A DNA stretch of 64,000 nt from Candidatus Delongbacteria bacterium (GCA_963663545.1 OY760505.1:1-64000), one strand, 5' to 3'; shown: positions 103 to 62,040, counted from the first letter of the stretch. Notes: generated from the sequence alone by a model not told the origin. Numbers and translations are program-made.

Positions 103-591
103 ATGAACAGCACCACCGGCGAGCAGCTGCGCGAGACGGGGATTGTAATTGCCGTGATACCCGCCGAGGGAAAGGACCCCGCGCGCGCACGCGTGCACCT
201 GGAAGTGGGCGATCACTGCGAACACTGCGCGGCCAAGATCCTCTGCAAGCCGGAAGATGGCGAGCGCCGTGTGCTGGAGTGCATCGACACCATCGGCGTG
301 CAGGTAGGCCAGCGCGTGCAGGTGATGGTGCCTGGCAATGAAGTGCTCAAGGCCAGCGCGCTGGTCTGGGGAATGCCGCTGCTGCTGCTGATAGTTGGAA
401 TCAGTCTTGGATGGCTGCTCTTGCCGGCCAAGGTGCCTGGCAAAGAACTTTGGTGCTTCCTGCTGGGCTTCGCGCTTTCGCTGGGCAGCCTGTTTGTGTT
501 ACGTAGCAGTCAACAGCGCAAAGGGGATGCCTCGACGCTACACGCCGACAGTCTGCTGAAGCCGCAGATCGTGGGGATCGTGGGGGAGTGA
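103..591 (+). CDS. RseC/MucC (SoxR-reducing system) family membrane protein
   Basis: RETGIVI...CEHCAAKILC motif, GQRVQV, two C-terminal TM helices; ATG at 103 after purine-rich GAGGAAGAGG (ORF-track N-terminal extension is the hexamer repeat). Confidence 0.75.
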   Translation: MNSTTGEQLRETGIVIAVIPAEGKDPARARVHLEVGDHCEHCAAKILCKPEDGERRVLECIDTIGVQVGQRVQVMVPGNEVLKASALVWGMPLLLLIVGISLGWLLLPAKVPGKELWCFLLGFALSLGSLFVLRSSQQRKGDASTLHADSLLKPQIVGIVGE

Positions 592-624
592 CCGGACAAA
601 CACGTGCACACAGGGGAGGGCATC

Positions 625-1078
625 ATGTACACATTCAAGTGGCTGCTGGCGGGCATCTTGCTGTCGCTGCTGGGCTCGGGCTGCATCAACACGGGTTGTT
701 ACCGGACAGGGCGATCCCTCGCACCCGGTGCCTTTGAGGCGGGCCTGAACATGACTCCCTACGTTGTATAGCTTGATTGCCAGCTCAAAACTGGGTCGAT
801 TGGAGCCCTACGCTTTTGCCACTTACTTTCGCGGCAGGGATCTGTTTACCGAAAAGGAGTCGCTGAACGATACCGCTCGCAATCACGCGCGGGCGTTTGG
901 GGGTGGCGTACGGATTGAATTGGGCAGGGGGCTTGCACTCTATCCTGAATATCGGGTCCTGCACTTTCAGGAGAGCAATGGCCCCAGAGCCCGAGCCCAT
1001 TTCGTCGGACTCGCGTTCAGTGGTGAAGTGAAGAACATCCTCCGCTACCTCGGCTTTCTGAAACACGACTCTCGTTGA
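625..1078 (+). pseudogene. Split lipoprotein / outer-membrane protein gene
   Basis: RBS GGGGAGG, ATG 625, signal peptide with lipobox (LLSLLGSG-C), TAG at 769-771; beta-strand-like C-terminal part continues in another frame (764..1078). Confidence 0.55.
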
Positions 1079-1178
1079 CCTCTCTCCTGCCCCTCTCTTT
1101 CTCGTGGATTCGTGACACAACACTGGCTACCTTCGTGTTGACACACGGATCACGGAAACAAGGATGCCAGGAAATCGG

Positions 1179-1280
1179 ATGCACATCAAATCCAGGTTTC
1201 AGCTGTTGGCGTCGGGCGCTTTGGGACTGCTGCTCTGCGGCTGCCGTTTTTTGCTTAAGGGCTCCTGGATGCCGGAGTAG
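1179..1280 (+). pseudogene. Orphan lipoprotein signal peptide (33 aa), likely a gene remnant
   Basis: MHIKSRFQLLASGALGLLLCG-CRFLLKGSWMPE*; basic n-region, hydrophobic h-region, lipobox, then stop. Confidence 0.35.
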
Positions 1281-1380
1281 ACTGTGTCACAAGAACAGCT
1301 TGGATCAGAGTCGCAATGATGCTAGTCTGAGAGCGCGAAGAGGAATCCGCATTCACAGGCGCAAAGGGGAGTGGGTCAGC

Positions 1381-3882
1381 ATGGGGTGCCTTCCACGGAA
1401 TACGCTTTGGTTACTACTGACAAGCTTGGGCCTGTTATTCCGTTGTCACGTGATACACGCCTTCGAGTTTGGAGATGAGATTGCGATTTCCGGCCAGCTG
1501 CAGGCACCGGGATTCTTGTGTCACGCCGATCTGGATGGGGATGGAGATGCGGACTTGCTCTGCACTTCAGGCTTGGACAACAAAGTGCTTTGGTACCCGT
1601 TTGAGGATGGTGATTATGCTTCACCGTGCGTTGTCAGTTCACAGATTGCCTATCCCACCAGCGCAGTTGCGGTCGATGTGGATCAGGATGGAGATCTGGA
1701 TTTGCTGGCTACTGCAGCCGGGAGCGGTGAGCTTGTGTTTTGTGAGGCCTTGGGTGGCGGTAGCTTTCTGGCACCGCGACCGCTTCTGCAGGGATTAGGC
1801 TGGCCGCGAGCGTTGCTCTGCGAGGATCTGGATGGCGACGAACACCTCGATGTGGCACTGACTTGCGCTGACGATGACCAGGTGCTGTGGTGTTCGCTAC
1901 GTCAGGATACACTGCTTTGTAACACACCAATTGTGATTGACGATAACTTGTATTCGGCCTGGAGTTTGGCGGCTGGCGACATCGATAACGACGGCGATCT
2001 GGATTTGCTGGCGGGTGGTATGCTTGATGATTGTGTGCGCTGGTATCGCAACGAAGACGGCGCGGGTTGTTACTCCCTGGCACAGCAACTCACCAACGAA
2101 GCCCACGGGCTACGCTCCGTGGCTCTGGCTGATCTGGACGGCGACAGCGATCTGGATGCGCTTTACGCTTCCGCGTGGGACGGCAGTGTGGCCTGGTTTC
2201 GCAACGCGGATTTCGCCGGACACTTTGGTGTGTGTCACATTCTGTCGGCACAGCTGCAGGGCGCCAGCATCGTTAAGCCGGTGGATCTTGATGCTGACAA
2301 TGACCTTGACCTGCTGGTAGCCGTCGCTGATACGGGTGCGGTCGTTGCGCTTGTGAACACAAACGGCCAAGCCACTTTCGCGGCTCCGCGCGTGCTGATG
2401 AATGACATTGTCGGCGTGCGCGCCATTGCGAACTACGATTGGAATAGCGACGGACTACCCGACTTTGCCGCTGTCTCTGAAGAGACGGGGCGGCTGCAAT
2501 GGACAACTGCACTGGGCAATCTGACCTACGATACTCCTCTGCGCATCGACACGAACCTGCTCGAACCAAGAAGAGTGTTGGCGGCTGATCTGGACGGTGA
2601 TACAGATGTGGATCTGCTGGCCAGTTTTGCCGGTGAAGGTGCCCTGGCCTGGTTTGAGAACGATGGCGCTGGTGCGTTTTCAACAGCGCAGATCATCGCT
2701 ACGCAACTCGATTCCGCTTTGGCAATCGATGTCTTTGACGTTGATGGAGATCAGTATCCGGATGTGATCGTCGGAGCCGCAGGCGCAGGCAGGGTCAATT
2801 GGTATCGCAACACAGAGGGACACGGCGCTTTTTCGACCGCAATCTGTCTGTGTGATACAGCACCGGGTGTGTGCTTTCTGGATCACGCGGATATCGATGG
2901 TGACGGGTATCAGGAACTGGCCCTGGCCTGCTATGCGGACAGCAGTGTGCGTATTGTGGACAACGAAGCCGGGACCTTCGCTTCGGTCGTGTATCACCTC
3001 GTCGGGATACCGAAGGTGAGCTGCGTACGTTTTGACGATCTGGATCAGGACGGCGATCAGGATCTAGCTGTTGGACGGCACGGGAGCTACACTTGCTGCG
3101 TGTTCAATGAGGAGGGTCTGGGTGGCTTCAGTGAGCTGACGCAGATCGCTTCCACGCATTGTAGCACCACGAGCATTGCCCTTTGTGATATTAACGGCGA
3201 TGGCATCAGCGATCTCTTGCGTGTCACAGATTACGCCGGTGCTGTTTTGTATCACGCGGGCAGTGGGGAGGGCCAGTTTGGTCCCGAGACCCTCCTCGAT
3301 CGCTTTGCGTTCGATCACCATGGCATCTGTCTGCTGGATGCGGACAGCGATGGCGATCTGGATCTGATAACGCCCTCGTATCACGAAGACTACAGTTTCC
3401 AGCAAGGCGGTGGTCTGGACTATTTTGAGTACCTGGGTCCAGCTGAGTTCGCGGAACCCCAGCGACTGCAAGCGTGCCTGCATGCGCCAACGTGTGTGGT
3501 TAGTGCTGATTTCAATGGCGATGGATTGCCGGACATTGCTGCTTGTTCCCGCGGTGACAGCAAGGTCGTTGTGTATCCGGGATTGGCCGAAAGCGAATTG
3601 CCTCATGCGTCGACGAAGCCGCAAGCTCTTGGCCTGCGCGCTTTTCCGAACCCCTTTAATCCTGTGACACGTATCGAGCTCGAATTGGCAGCGGGAGGAC
3701 CCAGCTGCATTCGTCTGCACGATCTGCTTGGGCGGCGCGTGATGCATGTGCATCAGGGCTATCTACGTGCGGGTCGGCACGAATTCCTGCTGGATGGCAG
3801 TGAGTTGTCCAGCGGTTTGTATTTCGTAGCAGCGCGAGTTGGTGATACACAGCAGGTGTTGCGTGTGAGTTTGCTGAAGTAG
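1381..3882 (+). CDS. Secreted FG-GAP/VCBS repeat beta-propeller protein with C-terminal secretion/sorting domain
   Basis: Many DxDGDGDxDL repeats; signal peptide after ATG 1381 (RBS AAGGGGAG); C-terminus AFPNPFNPVT...LSSGLYFV. Confidence 0.85.
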   Translation: MGCLPRNTLWLLLTSLGLLFRCHVIHAFEFGDEIAISGQLQAPGFLCHADLDGDGDADLLCTSGLDNKVLWYPFEDGDYASPCVVSSQIAYPTSAVAVDVDQDGDLDLLATAAGSGELVFCEALGGGSFLAPRPLLQGLGWPRALLCEDLDGDEHLDVALTCADDDQVLWCSLRQDTLLCNTPIVIDDNLYSAWSLAAGDIDNDGDLDLLAGGMLDDCVRWYRNEDGAGCYSLAQQLTNEAHGLRSVALADLDGDSDLDALYASAWDGSVAWFRNADFAGHFGVCHILSAQLQGASIVKPVDLDADNDLDLLVAVADTGAVVALVNTNGQATFAAPRVLMNDIVGVRAIANYDWNSDGLPDFAAVSEETGRLQWTTALGNLTYDTPLRIDTNLLEPRRVLAADLDGDTDVDLLASFAGEGALAWFENDGAGAFSTAQIIATQLDSALAIDVFDVDGDQYPDVIVGAAGAGRVNWYRNTEGHGAFSTAICLCDTAPGVCFLDHADIDGDGYQELALACYADSSVRIVDNEAGTFASVVYHLVGIPKVSCVRFDDLDQDGDQDLAVGRHGSYTCCVFNEEGLGGFSELTQIASTHCSTTSIALCDINGDGISDLLRVTDYAGAVLYHAGSGEGQFGPETLLDRFAFDHHGICLLDADSDGDLDLITPSYHEDYSFQQGGGLDYFEYLGPAEFAEPQRLQACLHAPTCVVSADFNGDGLPDIAACSRGDSKVVVYPGLAESELPHASTKPQALGLRAFPNPFNPVTRIELELAAGGPSCIRLHDLLGRRVMHVHQGYLRAGRHEFLLDGSELSSGLYFVAARVGDTQQVLRVSLLK

Positions 3883-3919
3883 TCCGAGAAGAAAATGCAC
3901 AAGCTTGTAGGTGGACAGC

Positions 3920-4536: not shown

Positions 4537-5145
4537 GTGACACACATCTTCTTCGGGAGGGACCGTAAGCAAAGTCTTAGGCTGTTGGGAGTATCGCTTC
4601 TATTCGTGACGACGCTCTCCAGTTTGGCCCTGGATCAGGAGCCGCAGCAGCGGAGAAAGGACAGCGAGTTGAGTTCGCGCTCGGCGCGTACGCAGTTTGG
4701 TGTTGGCAGAAGCCATTTGGGATCCAGTTTTGCCGGCTCCCTGCAGATTCCACTTCGCAGCGCAGACTTCCTACGATTTGAGTTTAGCCATGATCGCAAA
4801 ACCCAGCTTCTTAGTGGTCTGTTTGGCAGTCCGGAGAAACCGGACGACTATGCCTGAGAATTACTGCTGTGCTACGGAAGAGAGAGGCGACAGTCCATAT
4901 TGCACCTGCAGACCTCGCTTGGCGGAGGAGTCAAGTACCTCAAACGCTGGGCGTGGGTGGATTCGGACAATCACTGGCAAGGATACGCGAACTCGGTTGA
5001 GGGCTTCAGGCCTTGTGTCACACTGCAGGCCCAGACGGGATTGTTCATTCTGCCTACGTGGGAACATTCTCTTCAAGGGCAGTGGGAGGTTAGTTCCTGG
5101 GGTGATGTTTCTCGCGTTCTTGTAATGATTGGAACCGGGTACTAA
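4537..5145 (+). pseudogene. Tandem paralog of 3920..4522 interrupted by one in-frame TGA (4855-4857)
   Basis: Shares LSGLFGxPEKPDD, SILHLQxxLGGGV, WQGY, FILP and MIGxG[FY] with its neighbour; ORFs 4537..4857 and 4900..5145 are in the same frame. Confidence 0.8.
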
Positions 5146-5256: not shown

Positions 5257-5688
5257 TCAGAGCTTTTCCCAGCTGGCAACAGGTCCTTCGATGACAACAA
5301 AGAGCTGATGCGCAAGCGGAGTGCTTCCCGCGACATACTTCGCAAATCGCGCTGGATCACGAGTTTCCAGCTTGTTCAGCAAATGCCGCCATTCGTAGTC
5401 CAGTTGCCCCTGTGTCACGCTCAGGATCTCGACCGTCTCACGAAAGGGCAGGATGCGAGTGCGATCGAAGTTGTAGCCGCGCGCATCAGCCTCCTGCTGC
5501 ACGAAGCTCAAGTAGCGTGACACATTGCCCAGCGGATCAGCGCTTTCGCGAAAGCGCTTCAGCTGTGGGTGGTGTGTGTAACCTTTTGTCTTTCCCGCCA
5601 GTACCGCCTGGGCCAGCAGGGTCTCACGCCAGAGGGCCACTAGTCCTTTGGCGTCCAGCAGCGAAGGATGCAGCGACCAGATTCGCAT
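5257..5688 (-). CDS. Pyrimidine-dimer DNA glycosylase / endonuclease V (DenV-like) family protein
   Basis: MRIWSLHPSLLDAKGLVALWRETLLAQAVL..KTKGYxHHPQLxRF...GPVASWEK; RBS GGGGAG. Confidence 0.85.
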   Translation of the reverse strand: MRIWSLHPSLLDAKGLVALWRETLLAQAVLAGKTKGYTHHPQLKRFRESADPLGNVSRYLSFVQQEADARGYNFDRTRILPFRETVEILSVTQGQLDYEWRHLLNKLETRDPARFAKYVAGSTPLAHQLFVVIEGPVASWEKL

Positions 5689-5714: not shown

Positions 5715-6767
5715 TCAGGGCCAGAGACCTAGCGCCTGAGGTGGATCCTGGAGAGAGTACGTGGCAAACAGTCTGTCGCCGCGGAGCTCGGCAAGTTGCA
5801 TGGCGTCCATGCAAGCGGCGAACACGCGCGGTGCATGGCTGGAAACTGTGTCACAGACAACATCCAGCACGCCGTGGGGAAGAGACGTGTAGCGCAGGTC
5901 CGACATAGTGCTGCCATCGTAGCTCAGAAGCAAGCCTTCTTCTTCTCCTTGATTCAGCCAGCCACCAGCGGCCACCCAGATGCGGTTTTCGGCATCGACG
6001 GATAGGCGTCCTGGTGATGTTGCCACCTGCAGTGTGTCACAAGACTCGAGATGCGCCGGATCCACCCGCAGCATGTAGCCGGGACTTGTGTAATCGCCGG
6101 TGACAGATATCTGCAATTTGCCTGCTCGGTCGAGCAACAAAAACTGCGGATTGAGACCCAGCTGCAGGCTATCGAGTCTCGCACCGCTGGTGGCGTCCTG
6201 GACAAGTAGCTGGCCTGTGCCATAGGCATAGTGCGCAAAGTCGTAGCCGCTGCAAATGGTGTACACACGATCGTCGATCACCTGCAAACCGGCCGGTGCG
6301 ACTCCGCAGGGGAAGGAGTTCCTCGCGCCCGTGTCCACGTCGACGAGACTGATACTTCCCGCCAGCAGATTACTCACCAGCAGATGCCCATCGGAGCGCC
6401 AACTGGCGAAGTAAGGGTTCAGTCCGGACTCCAGACCCAGGTCCACGCTGCGCACAACTCGCACACCGCTGCTGTCTCGAGCAAAGACCAGCAGCTCGGA
6501 GCTCAGGCTATGTAACACGAACAGCTCATCGCTGCGTACTCCCAGCCAGTTAGCCGCGTAGCCTAGCCCCAGGCTCCCCGACAACCATTGCTCCTCGTTC
6601 AGCTCTAGGCAACGCAGACTTTGCATCCCCGCCACTGCCAGTAGGGCACCGGTTCTGGGTTCAGCGATAGGCGCGAGGGCGTCGTCATCACAAGCACTCA
6701 GGCATAGCAGGAAGGATAAGCCCAGCAGCCATTGTGTTACAGCCTTGACTTGCATCCGATTTACCAT
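5715..6767 (-). CDS. Beta-propeller lipoprotein, BtuG/YncE-like B12-binding candidate
   Basis: Lipobox LSA-C, propeller blades (GLNP, GVAP); last gene of the B12 capture cluster; start 6767 or 6755. Confidence 0.65.
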   Translation of the reverse strand: MVNRMQVKAVTQWLLGLSFLLCLSACDDDALAPIAEPRTGALLAVAGMQSLRCLELNEEQWLSGSLGLGYAANWLGVRSDELFVLHSLSSELLVFARDSSGVRVVRSVDLGLESGLNPYFASWRSDGHLLVSNLLAGSISLVDVDTGARNSFPCGVAPAGLQVIDDRVYTICSGYDFAHYAYGTGQLLVQDATSGARLDSLQLGLNPQFLLLDRAGKLQISVTGDYTSPGYMLRVDPAHLESCDTLQVATSPGRLSVDAENRIWVAAGGWLNQGEEEGLLLSYDGSTMSDLRYTSLPHGVLDVVCDTVSSHAPRVFAACMDAMQLAELRGDRLFATYSLQDPPQALGLWP

Positions 6768-8950
6768 GAACAGCTTACACCCGCATTCCAGCTTCGGCCT
6801 GGCTGAGGCATTCCGGCCAGCAGTTCCCATTGTTCATCCAGCAGATTTTCCACTCCGAGGCTCAGCGTATAGCTGCGATTTGTGAGGTTCCACTCTTGCC
6901 GTAGAGTGAAGTCCAATACTCCGTAAGGGGCCATACCGCCGCTCTGACTACCCGGGTCCAGGTTGCTCTCACTGGTGTAGCGGCGTCCAGCGGCCGACCA
7001 CTCTACATTAAGTGCAGGTCCGGGGCTCTGCAGGTACAGCTTGGCGTGTTCGTACCACAAGGCAGCAAAGGGGAGCCGCTTCCCGAAGTAAGGAGAACCG
7101 GGACTTGTATTCAGCGCCTGCTGCCAACTGTGTGACACAGTGCATTCCACACTCCAGTCTTGTCCCAAGGGACGTGATACATGCACCTGGAGTTCAAGTC
7201 CACGCACACGCGCTCTGGCAAGATTGTCCGGGAAGTATTGCCCTAGGTAATTGCTGCGCCAGATGACCAGGTCGCTGCTGTTTCGCTGATAGGCTTTGGC
7301 GCCCACTTCGCATTTCGCACGATGGAAGCAGGGGCGCACCGAGGCTGCTGCCTCGCACATCAGACTGCGCTCTGGGCGAAGATCTGGATTGCCCCGTGCC
7401 AGCACGCTTTCGCTGAGGAAGCGGCTGTTGAAATCCGGCAGCGAGAAACCGCGTGAGACACCGCCCTCAAGATGATAGCTCCCATCTTGACCTCCCGTCC
7501 AGGCCAGGTGCAAGTCTGCCGAGTAACCCCGATCCTGTCTTGTGTGTGATACACTGCGGTCGCGAGACAGGGCTGCACCCGCCCCGGTGGTCATGGAGAA
7601 CCCGTGATTAGCGTTCACTTGTTGCCGCAGTTCCAGCGCCACCCGGTCGCGCAGCACCTTGCCGTCGAGCAGGTCGGCGTCCACGTCGGCACGCTCGTCC
7701 AGCGAACGAAAACTCTGGTGTTCTGCCTGCGCCTGCACTTGAGGCCGGAAACCCGCTGCCGGCAGCAGAGAGGCGAAACGCAGTCCCGATTGGTATTCGC
7801 GCAGACGAGTCGGCAGGTGATACACAATGCTTCCGGTCCACGGATTCCACTGCAAGGCCGGGTTGTCCAAGCCATGACGTGCACGCCAGTACTCGAATTG
7901 TTGGCGACGGCCCGCCCGGTCCAACCATGACACACGAGCTCGTCCCAGAAACCGCTGTTGGCTTGCTTCGGTGGCCGGTGGCAGGTACAAGGGGCTGGGC
8001 GATCCTGTCTGCAGCAGATCCGCCTGTAACAGCAGATTCAGATCACCTTTGGGGCTTGTGTGATCCAACTTGAGCAAAGCCTGCTCGCGTTGTGTGTCAT
8101 TGTTCAAGCGCTGTCGCTGCTCACCATTCTCGGCCAGATAACTGAAATCGTTGTCCGCTTGCGCGTGATGCAGCCAAAGTGCGCCCTGCAGCGAGCCCAC
8201 CTTTGTCGAGAGTCGTAATCCGGCACGATGTGCGTTCCAGGAGCCCGAGTGCAGAGTCAGCTCACCGCGCGCGCTGGTTGGGCTGGAGTAGAGGCGTATC
8301 ACGCCCCCGGCACCTGCTGCTGCACCTGGTCCAGCTTGAATCTCTACTCGTGACACAGATCCCGGTGGAAGCTGGTTCAGATCCGCGGCCTCACCTGCAG
8401 CCGTGGAAAGCGGGAGCCCGTCCAGCAACACTTGCACCTGATCGGGGCGACATCCGCGTAAACTGGCCACGGCGCGTCCCCGCGCATCACGACGCACTTC
8501 CACTCCAGGTAAGCGTTCCAGCGCCAATGCCAACGGCGTGGCACGATCTGCTGCCGATTCGAAAAGACTAAGACTGTACTGAGTCGCCGCCGTGCTTTCG
8601 CTATTTCCAACTACAACAAGTTCCGGTGCCAGAAGCGTGGCCGGTGTCAGCGCCAGATGCAATTCCTGTTGCTGATCAGCGGGGAGAGTTAGCTCTCTTT
8701 CGAGTGTCACATAGCCCAAATGCGTGACACGTAATAGACAATTTCCGTTGGCGGGCGTGTGTAACAGAAAGCGTCCCTGCGTATCACAGGCGCTTCCTTG
8801 ATCGAACTCGGGTAATCTCACATGGGCGCTCGGTAGCGGTAACTGGGTTTCTGCATCAATAACGACGCCGCGCAGTTGGGCGCCGAAGCCTTGTGCAACG
8901 AGCAGAAGCCAACACAACAGTGGCAGCATCAGACGCAGGTTTTGCTTCAT
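6761..8950 (-). CDS. TonB-dependent receptor, likely cobalamin (BtuB-like)
   Basis: N-terminal GxVxDAETxxPLP domain, plug (LPGV, LRG, VLLDG, VSRVEI), GNPDLRPE, VENLLD...PGR, terminal Trp; downstream of cobalamin riboswitch. Confidence 0.85.
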   Translation of the reverse strand: MKQNLRLMLPLLCWLLLVAQGFGAQLRGVVIDAETQLPLPSAHVRLPEFDQGSACDTQGRFLLHTPANGNCLLRVTHLGYVTLERELTLPADQQQELHLALTPATLLAPELVVVGNSESTAATQYSLSLFESAADRATPLALALERLPGVEVRRDARGRAVASLRGCRPDQVQVLLDGLPLSTAAGEAADLNQLPPGSVSRVEIQAGPGAAAGAGGVIRLYSSPTSARGELTLHSGSWNAHRAGLRLSTKVGSLQGALWLHHAQADNDFSYLAENGEQRQRLNNDTQREQALLKLDHTSPKGDLNLLLQADLLQTGSPSPLYLPPATEASQQRFLGRARVSWLDRAGRRQQFEYWRARHGLDNPALQWNPWTGSIVYHLPTRLREYQSGLRFASLLPAAGFRPQVQAQAEHQSFRSLDERADVDADLLDGKVLRDRVALELRQQVNANHGFSMTTGAGAALSRDRSVSHTRQDRGYSADLHLAWTGGQDGSYHLEGGVSRGFSLPDFNSRFLSESVLARGNPDLRPERSLMCEAAASVRPCFHRAKCEVGAKAYQRNSSDLVIWRSNYLGQYFPDNLARARVRGLELQVHVSRPLGQDWSVECTVSHSWQQALNTSPGSPYFGKRLPFAALWYEHAKLYLQSPGPALNVEWSAAGRRYTSESNLDPGSQSGGMAPYGVLDFTLRQEWNLTNRSYTLSLGVENLLDEQWELLAGMPQPGRSWNAGVSCSW

Positions 8951-19028: not shown

Positions 19029-19029
19029 C

Positions 19030-20551: not shown

Positions 20552-20764
20552 ATGCTGATTCTGCTGGTATCAAGCACGCATCAAGCCCTGGCGGCTGAAG
20601 AAATTCTGCTGAACGCCGGTGTAGAGGTGCGATTGACTCCGGTTCCGCGAGCGATCGCCAGCGATTGCGGCATTTGCCTTCGTGTATCACAAGAGGAAGG
20701 CGAACGAGCAAAGGCGCTTCTGCGGGAGCGCAGTATTGAACTGGCCGGTACGCATCTGCTTTAG
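20552..20764 (+). CDS. DUF3343 family protein
   Basis: STHQAL.AE..L....RLTPVPRAIASDCGICL; start may be TTG 20540. Confidence 0.85.
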   Translation: MLILLVSSTHQALAAEEILLNAGVEVRLTPVPRAIASDCGICLRVSQEEGERAKALLRERSIELAGTHLL

Positions 20765-47037: not shown

Positions 47038-47063
47038 CCTGTCAATTTGTGTCACGACAACAC

Positions 47064-49490: not shown

Positions 49491-49762
49491 GAGGAAGCCG
49501 CGCGCCCGCCCTTTCTGCTTGCAGAATCACGCTGTAATCTTTAGTCTTAGGCTCACATTGACCCACGGTTCAGCCGGTGTCCCCCTGAAGCATGCGCGCC
49601 TCGCAGAAGTACCGGCGATACCTAATCTTCACTTCTCTTTGTGCTGCAACCCGATTCCACGAGGTGCAGGTCCGGCTGACCTCAATGTGATTACGCCCGA
49701 CATGTTCATGCTGCTGCGTGATACAGGCTGAGGCTCAAGGATCTGCACAAAGGGAGGTCACC

Positions 49763-52351: not shown

Positions 52352-52372
52352 TGTGATACAAGACCTAACGCG

Positions 52373-52419: not shown

Positions 52420-55380
52420 CTACGTTGTTGAAGCGGGAGGTAGCAGGACTTTGAAGCTGCTGCCTATTCCCGGCTCACTCTCGACAAGAATGCGACCGCC
52501 ATGTTGGTGCACGATGCCGTGTACCGTCGCTAGGCCCAACCCTGTCCCCTTGCCTTCTTCCTTTGTGGTAAAGAAGGGCTCAAAGAGTCGTGTCCGGACT
52601 TCTTCGCTCATGCCTATGCCCGTGTCACGAATCTCAAGCATTACCCACTCTGCATCGTGCTTGTCAGAGTCGCCGTTGTGATACATCGAAGTACAAATGG
52701 AGAGCTGCCCGCCTTTGGGCATTGCATCACGCGCATTGAGCACAAGATTCAATAACACTTGCTTGATCTGGCTGGCATCGGCGAAAAGCGGTGTGATACG
52801 GTCACCCAGTTGCATATCCAAATGCGTGTGACCCGCCAGACCACGGCGCAGCAGATCCAGCACTTCCAGGATGAGATCATTCAGCGATACGCGCATGAGT
52901 CGCAGTTCCTGCTGGCGACCGAAGGCAAGCAGTTGCTTCACTAGCGTTTGCGCCAGATCGGCACTTTGTCGAATGTGACTTAGCGAAGTGAGCTGGTCCT
53001 CTTCTTTCAGTTCATGGGCCAGTATTTCGCAGTAGCCGATAATGGGTGTGAGCAGGTTGTTCAGGTCATGTGCTACACCACCCGCCAGACTGCCCATGTT
53101 TTCCAGCCGCTGCCCGGCTTTGGCCTTTTCTTCGTAGCGTCGCAGTTCCGTTATATCCTGAAAAAGGCCGACCGCGGCAATGATTTTACCATCCTTGTCT
53201 CGTACTGGAGCCGCACTGCCGTGCAGTACTCGATGCAAACCCTGCGAATTCAGGATGACAGCTTCCTGGTTTTGTGTCACACAACCTTCGCGAATGGCGC
53301 GCACCAGCGGAGTTTGTTCCAGGCGCAGTTCCTCGCTCTGGCTGTTCCAGCTCTTCCAGATATGCATGAGTTCGCTGATGTGCAAGCCCTCGAAGGAGGA
53401 GCATTCAGAACTGAAGGATTGGTTGGTGGTAATATTGGTTAGCCGGACGCGCAAATCAGTGCCGATGATGATCATGGCAATGGGCGACTGCTCAAGTGCT
53501 GAGTGTAGCAGTCCTTCCAGCTCCTGGCGTGCACGTTCCAACTCGACCCAATCGCTGATATCATGGGCGACGATCATCAAGGCCTTGTCTTCTTCCCAAT
53601 GAATCAGTGTGGCGCTAGGCTCAATCCAGTGCCCGTTGATGATCTTCACCTGTAGACGTTCCGTGAGCGCTTTGCCCTCAAGCAGCGCTTGCCTTTTCTG
53701 AGCCACAGCTTCTCTGAATTCGGGAGCCAGAAGACTGCTGTATTCCATACCGATCAGGGTTGCCGGATCCTGATTCATCATGTGTCCACACTTGGTGTTG
53801 GCAAAGACCACTTTGCGATCCTTAACCACCAGAATCGCCTCGTTGGCATTTTCGATCAGGCTGCGGTATTTGTCCTCGCGATGGGCGAGCTCGGAGTACA
53901 GCTCCTCGCGTTCTCTGCGCCTAAGAAGTGCGTGTGTCACAAGAATCGACGTGGTCGCCGTCAAGAGAGCGCCCAGGATGCTGACGAGGAGGCTAAGACC
54001 TTCCAGGTAGCCGGTCGGGGTCTGCGTACTACAAACGCGCAGGGCCAGCGTCTGACCGAACACATAGACTGGCCAAGTGGTGCAAGGCCCGATACCCAGT
54101 GGTCCACACGCCGGCACCAGGACCCGATTTGTGTTGTCAGGGCGAATCAATAGAAGCTCTTGCACGAAGGGAAGCGATCTGGAGCCTGGATGCGTCGGCA
54201 TCATCAGTTCGCGATCCAGGTGCAACACTGCGCCAAGTTGCCTGAACTCGCCTTCCGGCGCAGGAAGGGGGAGGTAAAGGCGCAGACTAGGGCCATCGAA
54301 CTCGCCGTCACTTGTCCAGCCGCTTAAAATCCGCCGAGGCCCACTCTTTTCAGGCTGCCTCCAGGGAGCCAATTGCTCAAGTGGTCCCTGCAGAAGCGTG
54401 AATGTGGTCAGCTTCGTGCGCATGCTGTCTTGCGAAAGGTGCGCTAGCGAGCGCGTCACAGTCTCGCCACTGGCCTCCTGCGTGGCTACTTCCAGCAGAT
54501 TTGCCAGCCGAAACAAGTTTTGCTCTTGCTCCTGCAGTTGCCGGTTCAGCGTACCGACACATTGGCTTTCGGCCAACTCAACGAAATGACCTTCGCTCGT
54601 AAGCAGTTCGTGTTGGTGCACGAAGTACACACAACCTGCTGTCAGCGCGATACCCAGCAGCGGCACCAGCCAGCTTTCGGTCCAGCGGAGCCAGAAAGGA
54701 ATAGGCGGATGCATCAGTTCGCGCCAGCTCAGCAGCAGCCCGCCCAGCAGCAGGATCAGTACCGGGAGCAAGACCAAACTTATCCCCGTCACAAGAGCGT
54801 CGCGCAAACGAGCTCTCCAGCGGCTGGCTTCTATGTCCATCCCCAGTACCAGCCGGTCGCCGTCGTGTGTCACATGGGCAGCGAAGGCTGAGACAAAGGT
54901 GCCGTATTCGTCGGTGTAGGGGCCCGCCGTGCTTGCTTCCTGTCCGCCGAAAATCGGGAGAATTTCGTCCGGCGGCTGGTGATACAATTCGCCCAACGGA
55001 GAAGCTTGGGGATCACTGCGCGAATAGCTTTCCGGGCCGAAGTGGATGCCATCCTCTTCGAGCTTCATCAGATAAACACCGCGGCAGCCGACAATGGAAC
55101 GGCAGGTGGCAAAGAACTCGCAAAGGCGCTGATACTCAGCATTTGTGGAGTCGGCGGCGTCAAAGGATGGTGTTTTGTCGAGGCTCTGATGCAGTAGGTC
55201 GGTAACGGAGTGCAAGCGAAACAGCAGGTCGTCACGCATGTCGCGATCACACTCCTCCCGCTGCCACAATCCGGCCAGCATTGCGACTGGCAGGGTTATC
55301 AGTAGAAGAAGAAAGAGGTGTCGTGAGCCTTGAGCACCTGGTCCCTGGTGCTTTGCTGGCCAGCCGAAATTGGTCTGCAT
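52420..55380 (-). CDS. Membrane sensor histidine kinase with two PAS domains
   Basis: Periplasmic GPYTDEYGTFVS sensor, PAS/PAC, GVAHDLNN, GTGLGL; no receiver domain. Confidence 0.9.
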   Translation of the reverse strand: MQTNFGWPAKHQGPGAQGSRHLFLLLLITLPVAMLAGLWQREECDRDMRDDLLFRLHSVTDLLHQSLDKTPSFDAADSTNAEYQRLCEFFATCRSIVGCRGVYLMKLEEDGIHFGPESYSRSDPQASPLGELYHQPPDEILPIFGGQEASTAGPYTDEYGTFVSAFAAHVTHDGDRLVLGMDIEASRWRARLRDALVTGISLVLLPVLILLLGGLLLSWRELMHPPIPFWLRWTESWLVPLLGIALTAGCVYFVHQHELLTSEGHFVELAESQCVGTLNRQLQEQEQNLFRLANLLEVATQEASGETVTRSLAHLSQDSMRTKLTTFTLLQGPLEQLAPWRQPEKSGPRRILSGWTSDGEFDGPSLRLYLPLPAPEGEFRQLGAVLHLDRELMMPTHPGSRSLPFVQELLLIRPDNTNRVLVPACGPLGIGPCTTWPVYVFGQTLALRVCSTQTPTGYLEGLSLLVSILGALLTATTSILVTHALLRRREREELYSELAHREDKYRSLIENANEAILVVKDRKVVFANTKCGHMMNQDPATLIGMEYSSLLAPEFREAVAQKRQALLEGKALTERLQVKIINGHWIEPSATLIHWEEDKALMIVAHDISDWVELERARQELEGLLHSALEQSPIAMIIIGTDLRVRLTNITTNQSFSSECSSFEGLHISELMHIWKSWNSQSEELRLEQTPLVRAIREGCVTQNQEAVILNSQGLHRVLHGSAAPVRDKDGKIIAAVGLFQDITELRRYEEKAKAGQRLENMGSLAGGVAHDLNNLLTPIIGYCEILAHELKEEDQLTSLSHIRQSADLAQTLVKQLLAFGRQQELRLMRVSLNDLILEVLDLLRRGLAGHTHLDMQLGDRITPLFADASQIKQVLLNLVLNARDAMPKGGQLSICTSMYHNGDSDKHDAEWVMLEIRDTGIGMSEEVRTRLFEPFFTTKEEGKGTGLGLATVHGIVHQHGGRILVESEPGIGSSFKVLLPPASTT

Positions 55381-55461: not shown

Positions 55462-56949
55462 TCAAGAGAATGCGTGACGTGACACCTTTCGAAAATGAAA
55501 ACCGTAGACAGCCATCGTGATAGCAGTCGGGAGTTTCTGTGGGCAGTGAAAAATGCTGTGTGCAAACAAACGCCAATAATACCATCTCGCATGATCCAGA
55601 ATCCCCAGGCGCCAAATGCTTCGAACCAGTGCTTTCAGCATGGTTAGTGAAAACCGCGGACGCTGAGTGCGCGCAGGATGGAAATCTTTCAGAAATGCCT
55701 TGACGCGTCTGAAGTAGACATCTGGACGATACACGGTCTCAAGGATTTCCCGATATCCGCGTAACAATTCGCCATAGTCCATCTTCGGAATGAAGTTCAT
55801 TGTGCCGTCCATGTTATTGCCAGTAATGCCGGTGGCAAGCAGCCGATTCTCGCTGAACATTCGCTTGTACAACCGCGTTCCGATGGGAGCATTCAGCAGT
55901 CCGATCATGGCGGTTACAACTGAGCTATTACGGATGAAGTCAATCTGTTGATGGAAGACCGAGGTGGTATCGCTGTCAAAACCGACGATGAATCCCGCTG
56001 CAACACGCATTCCGTAGCGATGGAGGGTCCGCACGCTTTCTATCAGGTTTACGCTGAGGTTCTGTGACTTGCCGCATTCGCTAAGACTTTCTGTGTTGGG
56101 CGTTTCGATACCAAGGAACACGCACTCAAAACCGGCTTCGGCCATCAACGACATCAGCTCATGATCCTCGGCAAGTTCAACCGAGGCTTCTGTAGTAAAT
56201 AGAAAACGGGCACCGCTTGCTGCTTTCCAGCGGATGAGTGCTGGCAGCAACTCTTCCTTGAGGACGCGCGCCTTACCGATGAAATTGTCGTCCACGATGA
56301 AGATGTTGTTCTTCCAGCCAGCTTTGCGCAAGGCTTCCAGTTCGGCAATGAACTGAGCCGTTTGCTTTGTACGCGGGCGGTGTCCATTAAGCATGCCGAT
56401 ACTGCAGAACTCACAGTGATAAGGACATCCGCGGGAGTACTGAATGTTCATGCTGGCATAAGCCTTTATCTGCAGCAGGTCCCAGCGTGGAATAGGTGTG
56501 GCTGCAAGATCGGGGAAATCCGGTGAGGTATAGACCGTTTTTGCACAACCGGCCTCCAGGTCACGCAGGAAAAGCGGGAGCGTGATTTCGGCTTCATTTA
56601 GGACGTAATGGTCGATCCCTTGAAACCCCTCGCGGTTGGTGCTGAGCATGGGGCCACCAGCAACTACCTTTTTGCAGAGGGTCGTGCAGCGCACCAGCAC
56701 CTTCTGGAAGGATGAGCGCTGAATGTCCATACCGGTCAGGAAGACCATGTCTGCCCATCGCAAGTCCTTGTCTGTCAGTGACTCAATATCCATATCCACT
56801 AGTCTGCATTCCCAGCTGACAGGCAGCATGGCTGCTACAGTCAACAAGCCTAGAGGGGGGCCCGCCGCGCGCTTGGCGACAAAGGGTAGAGCATTGTGAT
56901 AGTTATGGAAGGTAGGAGGTGTTTTAGGGTTTACCAGCAGGATGCGCAT
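55462..56949 (-). CDS. B12-binding domain radical SAM protein (DUF4070-type)
   Basis: PPLGLLTVAAML, RGCPYHCEFC, IVDDNFIG, GFIVGFDSD. Confidence 0.92.
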   Translation of the reverse strand: MRILLVNPKTPPTFHNYHNALPFVAKRAAGPPLGLLTVAAMLPVSWECRLVDMDIESLTDKDLRWADMVFLTGMDIQRSSFQKVLVRCTTLCKKVVAGGPMLSTNREGFQGIDHYVLNEAEITLPLFLRDLEAGCAKTVYTSPDFPDLAATPIPRWDLLQIKAYASMNIQYSRGCPYHCEFCSIGMLNGHRPRTKQTAQFIAELEALRKAGWKNNIFIVDDNFIGKARVLKEELLPALIRWKAASGARFLFTTEASVELAEDHELMSLMAEAGFECVFLGIETPNTESLSECGKSQNLSVNLIESVRTLHRYGMRVAAGFIVGFDSDTTSVFHQQIDFIRNSSVVTAMIGLLNAPIGTRLYKRMFSENRLLATGITGNNMDGTMNFIPKMDYGELLRGYREILETVYRPDVYFRRVKAFLKDFHPARTQRPRFSLTMLKALVRSIWRLGILDHARWYYWRLFAHSIFHCPQKLPTAITMAVYGFHFRKVSRHAFS

Positions 56950-57263: not shown

Positions 57264-58148
57264 TCAGGGGATTGCATAGTGTGCCCAAGGATCGCGACAA
57301 ACAGTCGTGATACCAGCCTTGCTGGCATAGCAGTAAACACAGCCGTGAGCGCACTGATTGTAAATGCCGATGTCGCGCGCGCGTGCGCATCCGCAACCAG
57401 GACGCGTTGGTGCGCTGGCAATGGCGCCGGGCAGAAGTGTGTTGGCCTCTTCGAAAAAAGTGGCATCGATGCAGGCGGCACGCCGAATGCCCGGAGTTTG
57501 CAGAAGCTCCTCTTCGCAGCAGGCCAGCGGTTGCAGTTCGTTTTCCAATGCAATCTGCACTAGCTCCGCTGCCAGAGCGGCACGCATTTCGTGCGCGGGC
57601 GTGAAGACCAGCGAGTTCCCCTCGCCGTCGCGTGGCAGGCGAGCCTCAATCTTGCGGTAGCGATCCAGCCAACTTAGGTAGACGTAGTGTTGGTGGCCGC
57701 GCAGTTCCTTTGCCAGCTCAGCGAAGCGATTCAGCAGAAACTCGACGGGCGTCAACCGCGAAAGCAGCAAAGGATCAAAGCGCCAGCGTACGGCCTCCGG
57801 GCCTAATTCGTCAGCAAGCCTGAGCAAGTCGTCACGCGTCTCCTGCATCGGAGGAGCGTTGACTTCGAGTTCGCGCGGGTATCCCAGCAGACTTACCTGC
57901 ACCAGAATGCGCCGACGGCCGAAGAGCGCGTCTAGTTCGGGTAATGCCTGCAGGAGGGCGCCCGGGCGCCGCGTCCAGAAGACGACGCCGAGCAGTGCTT
58001 CGCTACGCAGGTCCACACGGGAGATCTGTCCGCCGATGGGATTGGGCACAGGAATCCAACCACGCCTGCACCAGCGCAGAAAGGCTGGCAGTTGAAATGC
58101 GGGCAGATCCATGCGTCGGCTGGCAGAGATGATCAGTCGCTTGTCCAT
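57264..58148 (-). CDS. DUF1848 family protein
   Basis: IISASRRxDLPAF, VFWT, WRFDP, CxC..DIG.Y..C.HGC.YCYA. Confidence 0.88.
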   Translation of the reverse strand: MDKRLIISASRRMDLPAFQLPAFLRWCRRGWIPVPNPIGGQISRVDLRSEALLGVVFWTRRPGALLQALPELDALFGRRRILVQVSLLGYPRELEVNAPPMQETRDDLLRLADELGPEAVRWRFDPLLLSRLTPVEFLLNRFAELAKELRGHQHYVYLSWLDRYRKIEARLPRDGEGNSLVFTPAHEMRAALAAELVQIALENELQPLACCEEELLQTPGIRRAACIDATFFEEANTLLPGAIASAPTRPGCGCARARDIGIYNQCAHGCVYCYASKAGITTVCRDPWAHYAIP

Positions 58149-59494: not shown

Positions 59495-59734
59495 GACGAA
59501 CTCCCGGGCGGACTACGTACCACTTGCCCTTCGGACAGGAATCAGTTGCTGTATCACGAAATACGTCCACCACCTTTGAAACCTTAAGTTCGCGAACTAC
59601 GGGCTAGGCGCAAAGTGGCTGAATTGTGTAGCGGAGGCTGCGGTTCGTATACCAAAAACTTTTTCAATCAAATCCAGAAAAAACAGAATTACGCCCTTGC
59701 TGTGTCGATAATGAGTGGGATCCAAGGAGAACTC

Positions 59735-60136
59735 GTGGAACGAAAAGACCTGTTTACTGTGGTGTTCGAGTCCATCGAACGGGACCTGGCCTACTACCGG
59801 GGACGGCAGATCAATGCACATTTCTACATGATCGGTTGTCAGGTGGTGCTCCTGGTTGCCTACATGGCCAACAGTACGCAGGGGAATTTGATTCTGCGCA
59901 TCCTCTTCACCCTTGGCTTCGGCTTCATCGCACGCATCAGCCTGATGGTCACCAAGAGCTTTCTGGAACGGGTGCACGACTTGTGGCGCAGGCGCGAGCT
60001 CTTGTTGAAACAGCAGGGGCTGCCCGAGGAGCTGGAGTTGCAGCTTCTGCATCGCCAGCCCTCCATCAGTCACCTGGGCGACCAGGCCTCGGTGATTGTA
60101 GCTGTGCTTTTCATCGCCATGTGCTGGCTGACCTGA
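59735..60136 (+). CDS. Hypothetical membrane protein
   Basis: RBS AAGGAGA before GTG 59735; three hydrophobic segments. Confidence 0.6.
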   Translation: MERKDLFTVVFESIERDLAYYRGRQINAHFYMIGCQVVLLVAYMANSTQGNLILRILFTLGFGFIARISLMVTKSFLERVHDLWRRRELLLKQQGLPEELELQLLHRQPSISHLGDQASVIVAVLFIAMCWLT

Positions 60137-60144
60137 ATCAATTC

Positions 60145-62040
60145 CTAGCGCTTTTCTATACGCACGAGTACAGCTGCCTCGTAGGCTCCCAGCTCAAGGC
60201 GCAGACTGCCATCAACCGCGCTTTTCATACGTCCGCCCTTGATAGCGTTGTACCACTCGCCTTCAGCTCCCGGACGCAGCTCGGTCTGGGCCAAACGGTT
60301 TGCCGGATTCATCACCACAACCACCCATTCGTCGCCCATGTAGCGCTCAAAAGCGTAGAGTCCGGTGTCGTCGTCCATGATCAGCGCATGGTAGTGGCCG
60401 CGCCGCAGTGCGATTTCCATGTTGCGAATGTGAATAAGCTTCTCGTACCACTTGCGCAGTTCGGCGTTGTAGCGGACCGGACACGCTTTTGGGCGTGGCG
60501 TACCGTCCGGCAGCAGCGTCTCGTCCTCATATGAGTAGTCGGGCCAGACCATGGGCTTGCGGCAATCGGGATCGTTGGCGCCCCACATACCAGCTTCGTC
60601 GCCGTAATACACCATTGGCGCACCTGGACAGGTCATCTGCAGCAGCAGCGCCATCTTGATGACTGCAGTATCGATGCGACCTGGAGCAGAGGTGTCGAAG
60701 TCGGGATTGCCGGATTGCGACCAACCGAAATAGGTGCCCCAATCGCGGAATGCGGGCCCACCGCCGTTTTTCACCTGGCTGGCCAAACGGGCAGAGTCAT
60801 GACTGTCCAGCAGATTTTGCATCACACTCAACCCCGGCTCGCCGAAGGCCTTGATCATCTCCTGCATGCGCTGGTCGAAGCTCGTGGGGGAGGGGGTCTT
60901 ACTTCTATCGTAGAGGAATTCAGCGACGGCAAAGGCGAAGTTGTAGTTCATCATTGCGTCGAACTCGTCGCCCTCGAGATAGGGTAAAAGCTCCGGCAAC
61001 GGTTCGATGACTTCGGCTACCAGGTAGGCCTGAGGATTGAGGCTGCGTACGTGAGCGCGCCACTTTTTCCAGAAGGGGTGTGATATACAGAAGGCCACAT
61101 CCAATCGCCAGCCGTCAATACCCTCGCGAAGGACGCCGTCAACCTCAGGCTTCAGCCAGCGCTCCGTTGCAGCAAAGATATAGTCGCGTACCGGCGGCAC
61201 CAACCCTTCCGCATCCTCGCGAAGCTCCGGCAATTCGCGTACACCGAACCAGCCCTCGTAGTCCAGCTCCTTTCCTGTAGCGGAATCCGGCCAGGCCTTG
61301 ACGGTGAACCAGTCGGCAAACTCGCTGGATCTGCCCTTCTGCTGCACATCGCGAAAGGCAAAGCTGGTCATGCCGAGGTGGTTGAAAACTCCGTCCAGGA
61401 TGAGATGCATGCCGCGAGCGTGAACCTGCTCCACCAGTTCCAGCAGCAGCAAGTCGGCGCTCGTCCATTTCCAGGTAGCTGGGTCAACAGGGTTCTCGTT
61501 TGCCATCAGCGCACGATCACCGACCGGATCGGGCCCCAGGGTAGGATCAACGTGATGATAATGCGCGCCGTCGTACTTGTGACTGGAAGGCGCGGTGAAG
61601 ACCGGGTTCAAATAAAGGGCGTTTACACCCAGTTCTTCCAGATAAGGCAGCGCATCCAGGATGCCCTGAATGTCGCCTCCGTAGCGGCGGCGCTGAATAT
61701 TGTGGCCCAGATCGTGGCCGTTGGCCTTTTCGTAGTCGGCGAGCGCGTACCAGTCGCTGGTCCAGGAGTGAATCTGCCAGGGTTCGCTCGCGTCGTGCGG
61801 CCAGGCGCCTTGCTGATCGGCAAGAGTCGGATCGTTGCTTGTGTCACCATTGCGGAAGCGCTCGGGGAAGATCTGATACCAGATTGCGTCACTGGCCCAG
61901 TCAGGCAGCTGATTTTGTTGCACCATGGCGGTGTGTTCCTTTTTCGTACCGCAGGCGAGGCAAAGCAGACACAAGGGTAGGAAGATCCAAACGCTGCGAT
62001 GCGCTAGGAAAGGCTTGAACAGCGGAAAAGTGGTAGACAT
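60145..62040 (-). CDS. GH13 alpha-amylase/neopullulanase-like lipoprotein
   Basis: Lipobox CLA-C, YQIFPERF.NGD, DGVFNH, DGWRLDVA, VAE, SHD, YYGDE. Confidence 0.92.
   Translation of the reverse strand: MSTTFPLFKPFLAHRSVWIFLPLCLLCLACGTKKEHTAMVQQNQLPDWASDAIWYQIFPERFRNGDTSNDPTLADQQGAWPHDASEPWQIHSWTSDWYALADYEKANGHDLGHNIQRRRYGGDIQGILDALPYLEELGVNALYLNPVFTAPSSHKYDGAHYHHVDPTLGPDPVGDRALMANENPVDPATWKWTSADLLLLELVEQVHARGMHLILDGVFNHLGMTSFAFRDVQQKGRSSEFADWFTVKAWPDSATGKELDYEGWFGVRELPELREDAEGLVPPVRDYIFAATERWLKPEVDGVLREGIDGWRLDVAFCISHPFWKKWRAHVRSLNPQAYLVAEVIEPLPELLPYLEGDEFDAMMNYNFAFAVAEFLYDRSKTPSPTSFDQRMQEMIKAFGEPGLSVMQNLLDSHDSARLASQVKNGGGPAFRDWGTYFGWSQSGNPDFDTSAPGRIDTAVIKMALLLQMTCPGAPMVYYGDEAGMWGANDPDCRKPMVWPDYSYEDETLLPDGTPRPKACPVRYNAELRKWYEKLIHIRNMEIALRRGHYHALIMDDDTGLYAFERYMGDEWVVVVMNPANRLAQTELRPGAEGEWYNAIKGGRMKSAVDGSLRLELGAYEAAVLVRIEKR

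Follow-up and report, generated by a model that had tools for sequence, protein, structure and literature searches.

BGTGAYACR, a dispersed non-palindromic word in a Delongbacteria-labelled genome and its relatives: a candidate uptake-type sequence

The window analysed here, a 64,000 bp stretch with 58.7% G+C from Candidatus Delongbacteria bacterium (GCA_963663545.1, OY760505.1:1-64000), is scattered with copies of a short word, BGTGAYACR, which comprises a core, GTGATACA, and a genome-specific form, GTGACACA. It is a genome-wide, unpolarised and non-palindromic word, present at about 1-1.5 copies per kb. The evidence, all of it drawn from sequence, points to the word being maintained by a force acting directly on DNA, rather than on proteins or RNA, and kept across a clade. 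By analogy with the DNA uptake sequences (DUS) and uptake signal sequences (USS) of other bacteria, this force may be biased uptake and recombination ('molecular drive'), an explanation that is favoured tentatively and at somewhat less than even likelihood.

Abundance, form and placement of the word

The window contains 97 copies of the 7-mer GTGAYAC, of which 52 are on the plus strand and 45 on the minus strand, with the first copy at 154 and the last at 61841-61847; the base that follows it is A in 71 copies, G in 17, C in 5 and T in 4. An earlier note on this DNA had reported about 96 copies (52 plus, 44 minus), including about 71 of GTGAYACA and about 17 of GTGAYACG, over a span of 154..61847. 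These figures are borne out by the recount, exactly so for the two 8-mers, and the word is present at all 16 positions that were offered as examples (at 1283 and 5411 it is the 8-mer that starts there, the minus-strand 7-mers lying at 1284 and 5412). Its estimates of about 60% G+C, and of about 14 7-mers and 3 8-mers expected from base composition, are likewise close to the values obtained here.

The excess was measured against Markov models of orders 0-5, trained on the window and simulated 60 times per order. Under orders 0 to 4, the expected number of 7-mers is 13.3, 11.1, 11.3, 14.6 and 25.3 respectively, against the 97 observed, and that of 8-mers 2.9, 2.8, 2.8, 3.8 and 8.2, against 71. 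At order 5 the expectation rises to 71.9 ± 9.0 7-mers (maximum 89) and 30.4 ± 4.6 8-mers (maximum 40), so that the excess asserted by the earlier note is still seen relative to all 60 simulations; this model is partly circular and does not constitute an independent null, because it was trained on the same 64 kb and includes the motif's own 6-mers, of which GTGATA and TGATAC each occur 75 times in the window. When all 8-mers were ranked without prior selection against an order-3 Markov model, GTGATACA (45 vs 2.1) and GTGACACA (26 vs 1.5) came first, and the words next in the ranking mostly overlap the same motif.

A set of 49 coding sequences (CDSs), curated from open reading frames and matches to NCBIfam and Pfam and covering 90% of the window, was subjected to two further nulls of 200 shuffles, one permuting synonymous codons such that proteins and codon usage were retained, the other permuting codon order. 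The 90 7-mers observed in coding DNA compare with 21.1 ± 3.7 (maximum 30) under the synonymous shuffle and 8.7 ± 2.7 under the codon-order shuffle; for the 65 coding 8-mers, the expectations are 9.3 ± 2.6 and 2.0 ± 1.3. An excess of 4.3-fold for 7-mers and 7-fold for 8-mers is therefore left after synonymous shuffling, again as the earlier note had supposed, and an artefact of dipeptide or codon usage is ruled out by both types of shuffle, overall and in each frame.

Aligning the 97 copies produces a logo that can be summarised as B-GTGAYAC-R. The base at position -1 is C in 46 copies, T in 31, G in 19 and A in just one, while no flanking position outside -1 to +8 carries as much as 0.15 bit. 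Within the word, positions 1-3 and 7 (G1, T2, G3 and C7) are strict and variation is tolerated at positions 4-6 and 8. The GTGATAC form, GTGATACA, is not a palindrome, whereas the minor GTGACAC form is an interrupted one, GTG-N-CAC. Since the flanks are not conserved, the word is a dispersed oligomer and not a repeat element; none of the longer repeat families in the window carries it, and an element resembling repetitive extragenic palindromes or miniature inverted-repeat transposable elements can be ruled out on these grounds and by the location of 90 of the 97 copies in coding DNA. The single-mismatch variants that the earlier note had named, whose equal enrichment was to count against a real signal, are not enriched in the window (GTGAAACA, 1 vs 1.9 expected; GTGAGACA, 3 vs 1.0). 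Mild enrichment in the window is found for three other variants differing at one position, GTGATACG (11 vs 2.3), GTGATCCA (14 vs 4.4) and GTGTTACA (9 vs 1.0).

The word is placed in genes without regard to frame or direction, other than where a stop codon would result. With 90 of the 97 copies inside CDSs, which make up 90% of the window, intergenic DNA is not favoured. Each of the five stop-free frames is used, with 24 and 24 copies in the two sense frames and 13, 11 and 18 in the antisense frames, each 3-9 fold above the synonymous shuffle; the sixth frame, in which the word would read TGA, has no copies. The motif accounts for 17 of the 49 ATA codons in the curated genes. A signal acting at the level of the transcript is ruled out by the similar numbers of sense and antisense copies within genes (48 and 42) and by their uniform distribution along the gene (Kolmogorov-Smirnov p = 0.98 and 0.67). 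Similarly, the 52:45 division between strands (54% plus, n = 97; binomial p = 0.54) does not switch along eight 8-kb bins, ruling out a strand or replichore signal of the Chi or KOPS type. The sign of the GC skew is positive in all but two of 16 bins, which implies that the window probably lies within one replichore.

Spacing between copies is over-dispersed (coefficient of variation 1.33 vs 0.98 ± 0.10), and no quasi-periodicity is seen in the window. Densities of 4-8 copies per kb are reached in the genes for an FG-GAP protein associated with the type IX secretion system (T9SS), a TonB receptor, tolA and a thioesterase, while clpB, dxr, def, fmt, tldD, the peroxiredoxin gene, purE, parB and a 2.8-kb TMEM260-TPR gene have no copies. 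The motif-free stretches at 20914-25020 (4.1 kb), 33080-37671 (4.6 kb) and 44358-47049 (2.7 kb) span TMEM260-TPR, def-fmt-DUF6588-dxr and clpB. The impression that conserved genes lack the motif was not confirmed by a formal test on 14 syntenic genes, in which the gap over-dispersion was not explained by protein conservation.

Distribution and conservation among relatives

Comparison loci were collected by a genome scan with a TolB query, which returned at least 80 loci; two of them, L001 (46% TolB identity, 67% G+C) and L002 (41% TolB identity, 57.5% G+C), are the relatives among the matches listed. Both are syntenic with 12-30 kb of the window, with protein identities of 37-79%. Their label, 'uncultured Bacteroidaceae bacterium', is doubtful given their 57-67% G+C and the Calditrichaeota- and Delongbacteria-labelled relatives of ParB and AccA described below. 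In a search made without prior, GTGATACA is the top-scoring 8-mer in both L001 (7 vs 0.2) and L002 (13 vs 0.5). By contrast, the 78 unrelated loci, drawn from many phyla and totalling 1.27 Mb, contain 18 copies where 21.1 are expected, and 63 of all 80 loci have no copy of it. On these counts across three genomes, the motif is characteristic of the clade.

The two forms do not share this distribution. There are 26 copies of GTGACACA in the window and none in either relative, so the ambiguity (Y) in the motif, which the earlier note had taken as part of it, is a feature of the window's lineage: it holds within the window and not in the relatives, which carry essentially only the T form. The GTGACAC form is also concentrated in the first 10 kb of the window, where 18 C copies are found with 15 T copies, the corresponding numbers elsewhere being 16 and 48 (Fisher p = 0.0066 for a partition chosen post hoc; runs test p = 0.069). 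The region 1-10000 is the densest in motifs, with 3.3 copies per kb. Its wealth of the C form could indicate DNA imported from a lineage with another dialect, or simply genes under less constraint. Among the secondary words, GTGATCCA is also raised in L001 (6 vs 1.6) and L002 (6 vs 1.6), and GTGTTACA in L002 (5 vs 0.3); such words may have arisen from the motif by decay, or be near-cognate forms of it.

When 14 orthologous genes were aligned by codon across the three genomes (5,217 columns), the alignments contained 18 motif sites from the window, 11 from L001 and 17 from L002. The motif occupies the same column in all three genomes in tolR (column 94) and a glycosyltransferase gene (column 216), in the window and L001 in ybgF (column 234) and a GT2 gene (column 228), and in the two relatives in tolB (column 385) and the PMT gene (column 597). 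This gives 10 shared site pairs at six columns, where a hand estimate for random placement is about 0.7. In comparisons where the peptide is the same, counted directionally, the motif is kept in 18 of 22, against 2.6 expected from codon usage, which implies that synonymous positions are being held. Most aligned sites are nonetheless specific to one lineage, and many of these displace the ancestral peptide: at such sites glmU encodes LGRDTKI rather than IAPGAEI and VEAGAEI, PMT encodes PTVIHAT rather than PTVYRAD and PTIYRAD, and TMEM260 of L002 encodes GNRDTAR rather than GDKAGAL and GNGGEAL. As lineage-specific sites replace the peptide and shared ones persist, the word is created at a cost to the protein and then kept.

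Individual copies and their surroundings

The genes around the word are those of an ordinary chromosome, including parAB, an alternative glmU, tol-pal, accA, def-fmt, dxr, rseP, clpB and tRNA-Leu, along with histidine kinases and a cobalamin riboswitch associated with a TonB receptor. The presence of T9SS C-terminal sorting domains and of DUF4837 points to the FCB (Fibrobacteres-Chlorobi-Bacteroidetes) superphylum. The closest named relatives of ParB and AccA are from metagenome-assembled genomes (MAGs) labelled Calditrichaeota (62% and 70% identity, respectively) and Delongbacteria (57% and 69%). Identities of 56-89% are found among the ParB relatives in genomes of the clade. In the following, flanking bases are in lower case and coordinates are those of the 7-mer.

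The leftmost copy, cGTGATACc at 154..160 (+), is in an rseC-like gene. The FG-GAP T9SS gene, at 1075-3882 (+), encodes a 935 aa FG-GAP repeat protein with a weak match to a T9SS sorting domain, below the Pfam gathering score, and its internal 41-nt DNA repeats encode calcium-binding-like D-x-D-x-D-G-D repeats. Its motif load is among the highest of any gene, at 13 copies (4.6 per kb): cGTGACACa at 1112..1118 (+) and 1518..1524 (-), tGTGACACa at 1284..1290 (-) and 2232..2238 (-), cGTGATACa at 1450..1456 (+) and 3249..3255 (-), gGTGATACa at 2597..2603 (+), 2991..2997 (-) and 3842..3848 (+), tGTGATACa at 2852..2858 (+), tGTGACACg at 3221..3227 (-) and 3664..3670 (+), and cGTGATACg at 3378..3384 (-). 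Between this gene and the TonB receptor, cGTGACACa is intergenic at 4537..4543 (+), 5412..5418 (-) and 5517..5523 (+), and tGTGACACa lies in sequences encoding hypothetical proteins at 5015..5021 (-), 5848..5854 (-) and 6034..6040 (-).

A cobalamin riboswitch at 11153-11369 (-), matching Rfam with 97 bits, is upstream of an operon at 6761-11075 (-) whose products include the TonB-dependent receptor and two proteins with T9SS C-terminal sorting domains (CTDs), and which is probably a locus for scavenging B12. The receptor gene contains tGTGACACa at 7132..7138 (+), cGTGATACa at 7174..7180 (+), tGTGATACa at 7546..7552 (+), gGTGATACa at 7817..7823 (+), cGTGATACg at 8296..8302 (-), cGTGACACa at 8350..8356 (+), tGTGACACt at 8704..8710 (-), cGTGACACg at 8724..8730 (+) and tGTGATACg at 8781..8787 (-). 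In T9SS-CTD protein genes are cGTGACACa at 9050..9056 (-) and 9769..9775 (+), cGTGATACg at 9296..9302 (+), gGTGATACa at 9347..9353 (-) and tGTGATACa at 10974..10980 (+).

Single copies follow in parA (tGTGATACg, 12763..12769, +), the alternative glmU (cGTGATACa, 14483..14489, +) and pal (gGTGATACa, 15173..15179, -). In tolQ there are tGTGATACg at 15940..15946 (-) and cGTGATACa at 16001..16007 (-), and tolR has gGTGATACa at 16683..16689 (+), the site common to L001 and L002. The five copies in tolA are tGTGATACa at 16855..16861 (+), tGTGACACg at 17068..17074 (-), tGTGACACa at 17293..17299 (-), gGTGACACa at 17374..17380 (+) and cGTGATACg at 17501..17507 (+). Further along are cGTGATACg at 18345..18351 (+) and cGTGATACa at 18997..19003 (+) in tolB, tGTGATACa at 19738..19744 (+) in ybgF, at the column shared with L001, an intergenic cGTGATACg at 20116..20122 (-), and tGTGATACa at 20684..20690 (-) and cGTGACACa at 20914..20920 (-) in the gene for a DUF2007 protein.

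The glycosyltransferase gene carries gGTGATACa at 25020..25026 (-), matched in both L001 and L002, and cGTGACACa at 25118..25124 (-); the GT2 gene whose site is shared with L001 has cGTGATACa at 26109..26115 (+). PMT-like copies are gGTGATACa at 27014..27020 (+) and 27769..27775 (+), cGTGATACa at 27535..27541 (-) and gGTGATACt at 27574..27580 (+). Two cGTGATACa copies are close together in rmlD, at 30722..30728 (-) and 30747..30753 (-). A GT2 gene contains tGTGATACt at 30992..30998 (-) and cGTGATACa at 31171..31177 (+), and accA contains gGTGACACa at 32047..32053 (+) and cGTGATACa at 32086..32092 (+). The thioesterase gene has gGTGATACa at 32910..32916 (-), tGTGATACa at 32965..32971 (-), cGTGACACa at 33029..33035 (+) and cGTGATACa at 33080..33086 (+). 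After the motif-free stretch that begins there, cGTGATACa is found in rseP at 37671..37677 (+). A TPR protein gene has tGTGATACt at 39465..39471 (-) and aGTGATACa at 39559..39565 (+), the sole copy with A at position -1; a pmbA-like gene has cGTGATACa at 40490..40496 (-) and gGTGACACa at 40700..40706 (+); and the gene for a hypothetical protein of 575 aa has cGTGATACc at 43316..43322 (+), gGTGATACc at 43515..43521 (-) and cGTGACACg at 44358..44364 (-).

An intergenic cGTGACACa at 47049..47055 (-) occupies the gap between clpB and tRNA-Leu. The 3' 52 nt of tRNA-Leu(TAA) (47145-47196) are perfectly duplicated at 49439-49490, and G+C content drops between the two. A short open reading frame between these repeats, at 47353-47778 (-), matches phage integrases weakly in Pfam (E = 2.9e-5, under the gathering score). 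The region 47111-49490 has the appearance of a small integrated element, now decayed, with its attL and attR. The only motif in this islet of about 2.3 kb is tGTGATACa at 47729..47735 (+), in the integrase fragment, compared with about 3.4 expected at the density of the window; this is too few bases to be informative.

Beyond it, a hybrid histidine kinase gene contains cGTGATACa at 49718..49724 (+), 50084..50090 (+), 50411..50417 (+) and 50467..50473 (-), gGTGATACa at 49776..49782 (+), cGTGATACg at 50171..50177 (+) and tGTGATACa at 50252..50258 (-). Directly past the peroxiredoxin stop codon is an intergenic tGTGATACa at 52353..52359 (+). Histidine kinase copies are cGTGACACg at 52622..52628 (-), tGTGATACa at 52678..52684 (+), tGTGATACg at 52793..52799 (+), tGTGACACa at 53274..53280 (-), 53934..53940 (-) and 54867..54873 (-), and gGTGATACa at 54979..54985 (+). 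The remainder of the window has four copies: cGTGACACc at 55479..55485 (+) in a B12/radical SAM protein gene, cGTGATACc at 57307..57313 (+) in a DUF1848 protein gene, an intergenic cGTGATACa at 59551..59557 (-), and gGTGACACa at 61841..61847 (-) in a gene of the alpha-amylase family.

Known systems and competing explanations

The closest known class to this word is that of the uptake sequences, since polarised octamers and repeat elements are excluded by test and DUS and USS are likewise unpolarised and non-palindromic. DUS number 2,245-5,918 copies per genome, dialects one nucleotide apart can co-exist in one genome of the Neisseriaceae, and placement is limited by TGA in one frame (PMC3630211). 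Like the window's word, the DUS of this family (GCCGTCTGAA and its dialects, with the receptor ComP) are short and non-palindromic, occur at about 1-2.5 per kb on both strands and within genes, have one-nucleotide dialects, two of which can share a genome, that parallel the T and C forms seen here, and are subject to a TGA restriction mirrored in the motif's empty sixth frame. The motif differs from DUS in its unrelated sequence, its length (8-9 bp vs 10-12 bp), its lack of concentration in terminators or inverted pairs, and its host, an uncultured bacterium of the FCB group rather than a betaproteobacterium. USS have AT-rich flanking segments, and this feature and their terminator stems set them apart from the motif, which has neither a flank signal nor a link to terminators. 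Haemophilus influenzae has about 1,300 USS, which often form terminator stems (PMC5217627), and variants are conserved across the family (PMC1626085); the USS of the Pasteurellaceae (core AAGTGCGGT) resemble the motif in density, in coding placement in several frames and in having family-wide variants.

If the explanation by biased uptake is right, a DNA uptake or transformation apparatus would preferentially bind fragments carrying the word, and alleles with it would be imported and recombined more often. The word would then build up wherever the protein tolerates it, persist at its sites and drift into lineage 'dialects'. This explanation is ranked first because the density, strand symmetry, placement in coding DNA in multiple frames, TGA constraint, clade distribution and dialects of the word are all shared with DUS and USS. 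It also agrees in part with the earlier note, which had proposed an uncharacterised recognition signal, namely an uptake sequence, a motif iterated through methylation or repair, or a site for a chromosome-organising protein. A DNA-level signal is supported by the shuffles, the five frames, the relatives and the synonymous conservation, and of these three options the analogy with uptake fits best. More doubtfully, though still as a real possibility, GTGATACA would represent a third, independently evolved sequence for DNA uptake or self-recognition, the first outside the Proteobacteria, extending across a deep uncultured lineage of the FCB superphylum, with live dialects (GTGACACA arising here) and a receptor unrelated to ComP.

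Several observations weigh against uptake as the explanation. Terminators are enriched for DUS and USS, frequently in the form of inverted pairs, about half of them (bioRxiv 10.1101/2025.10.24.684340). In the window, there is only one close inverted pair, 8704/8724, 20 bp apart and inside a CDS; terminator-like matches in its first 20 kb are at the level of chance (14 vs 15.6 in shuffles), and intergenic enrichment is absent across its whole length (7 of 97 copies vs about 10 expected). The length of the word, 8-9 bp, is below the 9-12 bp of DUS and USS, no gene for competence, a type IV pilus or a receptor is found within the 64 kb, and the clade is sampled by three genomes only. Furthermore, conservation at lineage-specific sites in the 14 aligned genes is not significantly lower than the background (0.469 vs 0.544, P = 0.11), nor is the conservation of a gene significantly correlated with its motifs (rho = +0.18, p = 0.54). 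Avoidance of constrained positions, which a drive model would predict, is therefore seen weakly and without significance, and neither supports nor refutes molecular drive.

An alternative, which seems unlikely, is that the word resembles HIP1 in being recognised by one or more DNA methyltransferases, or by a linked repair or recombination function, with its abundance arising through selection or biased mismatch correction and no role in uptake. The cyanobacterial HIP1 (GCGATCGC) is over-represented by 15- to 300-fold and may be present at more than one copy per gene (PMC5861425), is conserved in evolution and serves as a recognition site for methylases (PMC13756078), and has a debated function (PMC5861425, PMC13756078). 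It is comparable to the motif as a hyper-abundant octamer of coding and non-coding DNA, conserved both in deep clades and at single sites, and the motif's use of all the available frames fits the same pattern. Furthermore, the GTGACAC form is an interrupted palindrome, and a C/T transition separates the two forms, which are exchanged for each other between orthologues in tolB (column 385) and PMT (column 597); this is the type of change expected from deamination of 5-methylcytosine. However, HIP1 is a perfect palindrome with orphan methylases and a quasi-periodic distribution, whereas the dominant GTGATAC form, which alone is common to the clade, is non-palindromic, the gaps between copies are over-dispersed rather than quasi-periodic, and the window contains no gene for a methyltransferase or a Vsr-like protein. 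Repair of the very-short-patch type generates modest biases only, which fall short of the 20- to 30-fold enrichment seen here.

Rather improbable, too, is the proposal that the copies are sites for an abundant sequence-specific DNA-binding protein, either nucleoid-associated or involved in chromosome organisation or segregation, each under weak selection. The retention of sites at synonymous positions would be compatible with it, and the strict G1, T2, G3 and C7 with tolerant positions 4-6 and 8 resemble a protein recognition profile. The word is moreover one position away from the right half of the canonical parS, a 16-bp palindrome with GTGAAACA half-sites found a few times per genome, and parAB is in the window. 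Yet GTGAAACA itself is not enriched and there is no match to the parS consensus within 3 mismatches in the window, ruling out a parS/ParB site. Known chromosome-organising sites such as parS, matS, NBS and SBS number tens per genome, not thousands, and a preference for intergenic or regulatory DNA is lacking. Chi, KOPS and the architecture-imparting octamers do resemble the word as over-represented octamers read by DNA-processing machines, but abundant sites of this type (KOPS, SRS and Chi) are strongly polarised; Chi and KOPS are strongly co-oriented with replication and in modest excess, unlike a word divided 52:45 within an apparent single replichore and enriched 20- to 30-fold, and the earlier note was correct in distinguishing it from them.

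That the word is a mobile repeat, an assembly artefact or a by-product of codon usage, dipeptide usage or composition is very improbable, and this view has largely been refuted already. The window-trained order-5 model does yield 72 of the 97 7-mers, and protein sequences alone lift the 7-mer expectation from 8.7 to 21.1. Against this, the observed counts exceed every order-5 simulation even though the model contains the motif's 6-mers, the excess over the synonymous shuffle persists, five frames and both strands are enriched without conserved flanks, and the word also ranks first in both relatives, which were assembled independently, while being at expectation in 78 other loci. Most of the probability not assigned to these explanations falls to a mechanism of a kind not yet described.

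No description of the word as a genomic repeat was found in the literature, where the string matches to it and its reverse complement, among the 20 of 725, 15 of 80 and 15 of 559 that were inspected, were primers and unrelated sequences; nor does it appear in two published surveys of abundant oligomers. The kind of feature is known, and the novelty lies in its sequence, in the lineage that hosts it and in the absence of an association with terminators. To our knowledge, sequence-biased DNA uptake has been documented in two proteobacterial families only. The accessible part of a 2025 comparative preprint treats these two alone (bioRxiv 10.1101/2025.10.24.684340). Natural competence is present in the wider FCB group, in Riemerella (PMC7965970), which favours the uptake explanation.

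How and why uptake motifs originate is a long-standing question, and the same signature in an unrelated, uncultured lineage would give an independent replicate for distinguishing models of drive from those of selection. The word would also serve as a simple sequence marker of native as opposed to imported DNA in these MAGs, and, as motif and mutant oligonucleotides, would offer a bait for a new DNA receptor or methylase. If its function is not uptake, the motif would be a non-palindromic counterpart of HIP1, itself unexplained. If it is indeed a third uptake sequence, it would imply frequent natural transformation, biased towards DNA of the organism's own kind, in an environmental clade known only from metagenomes.

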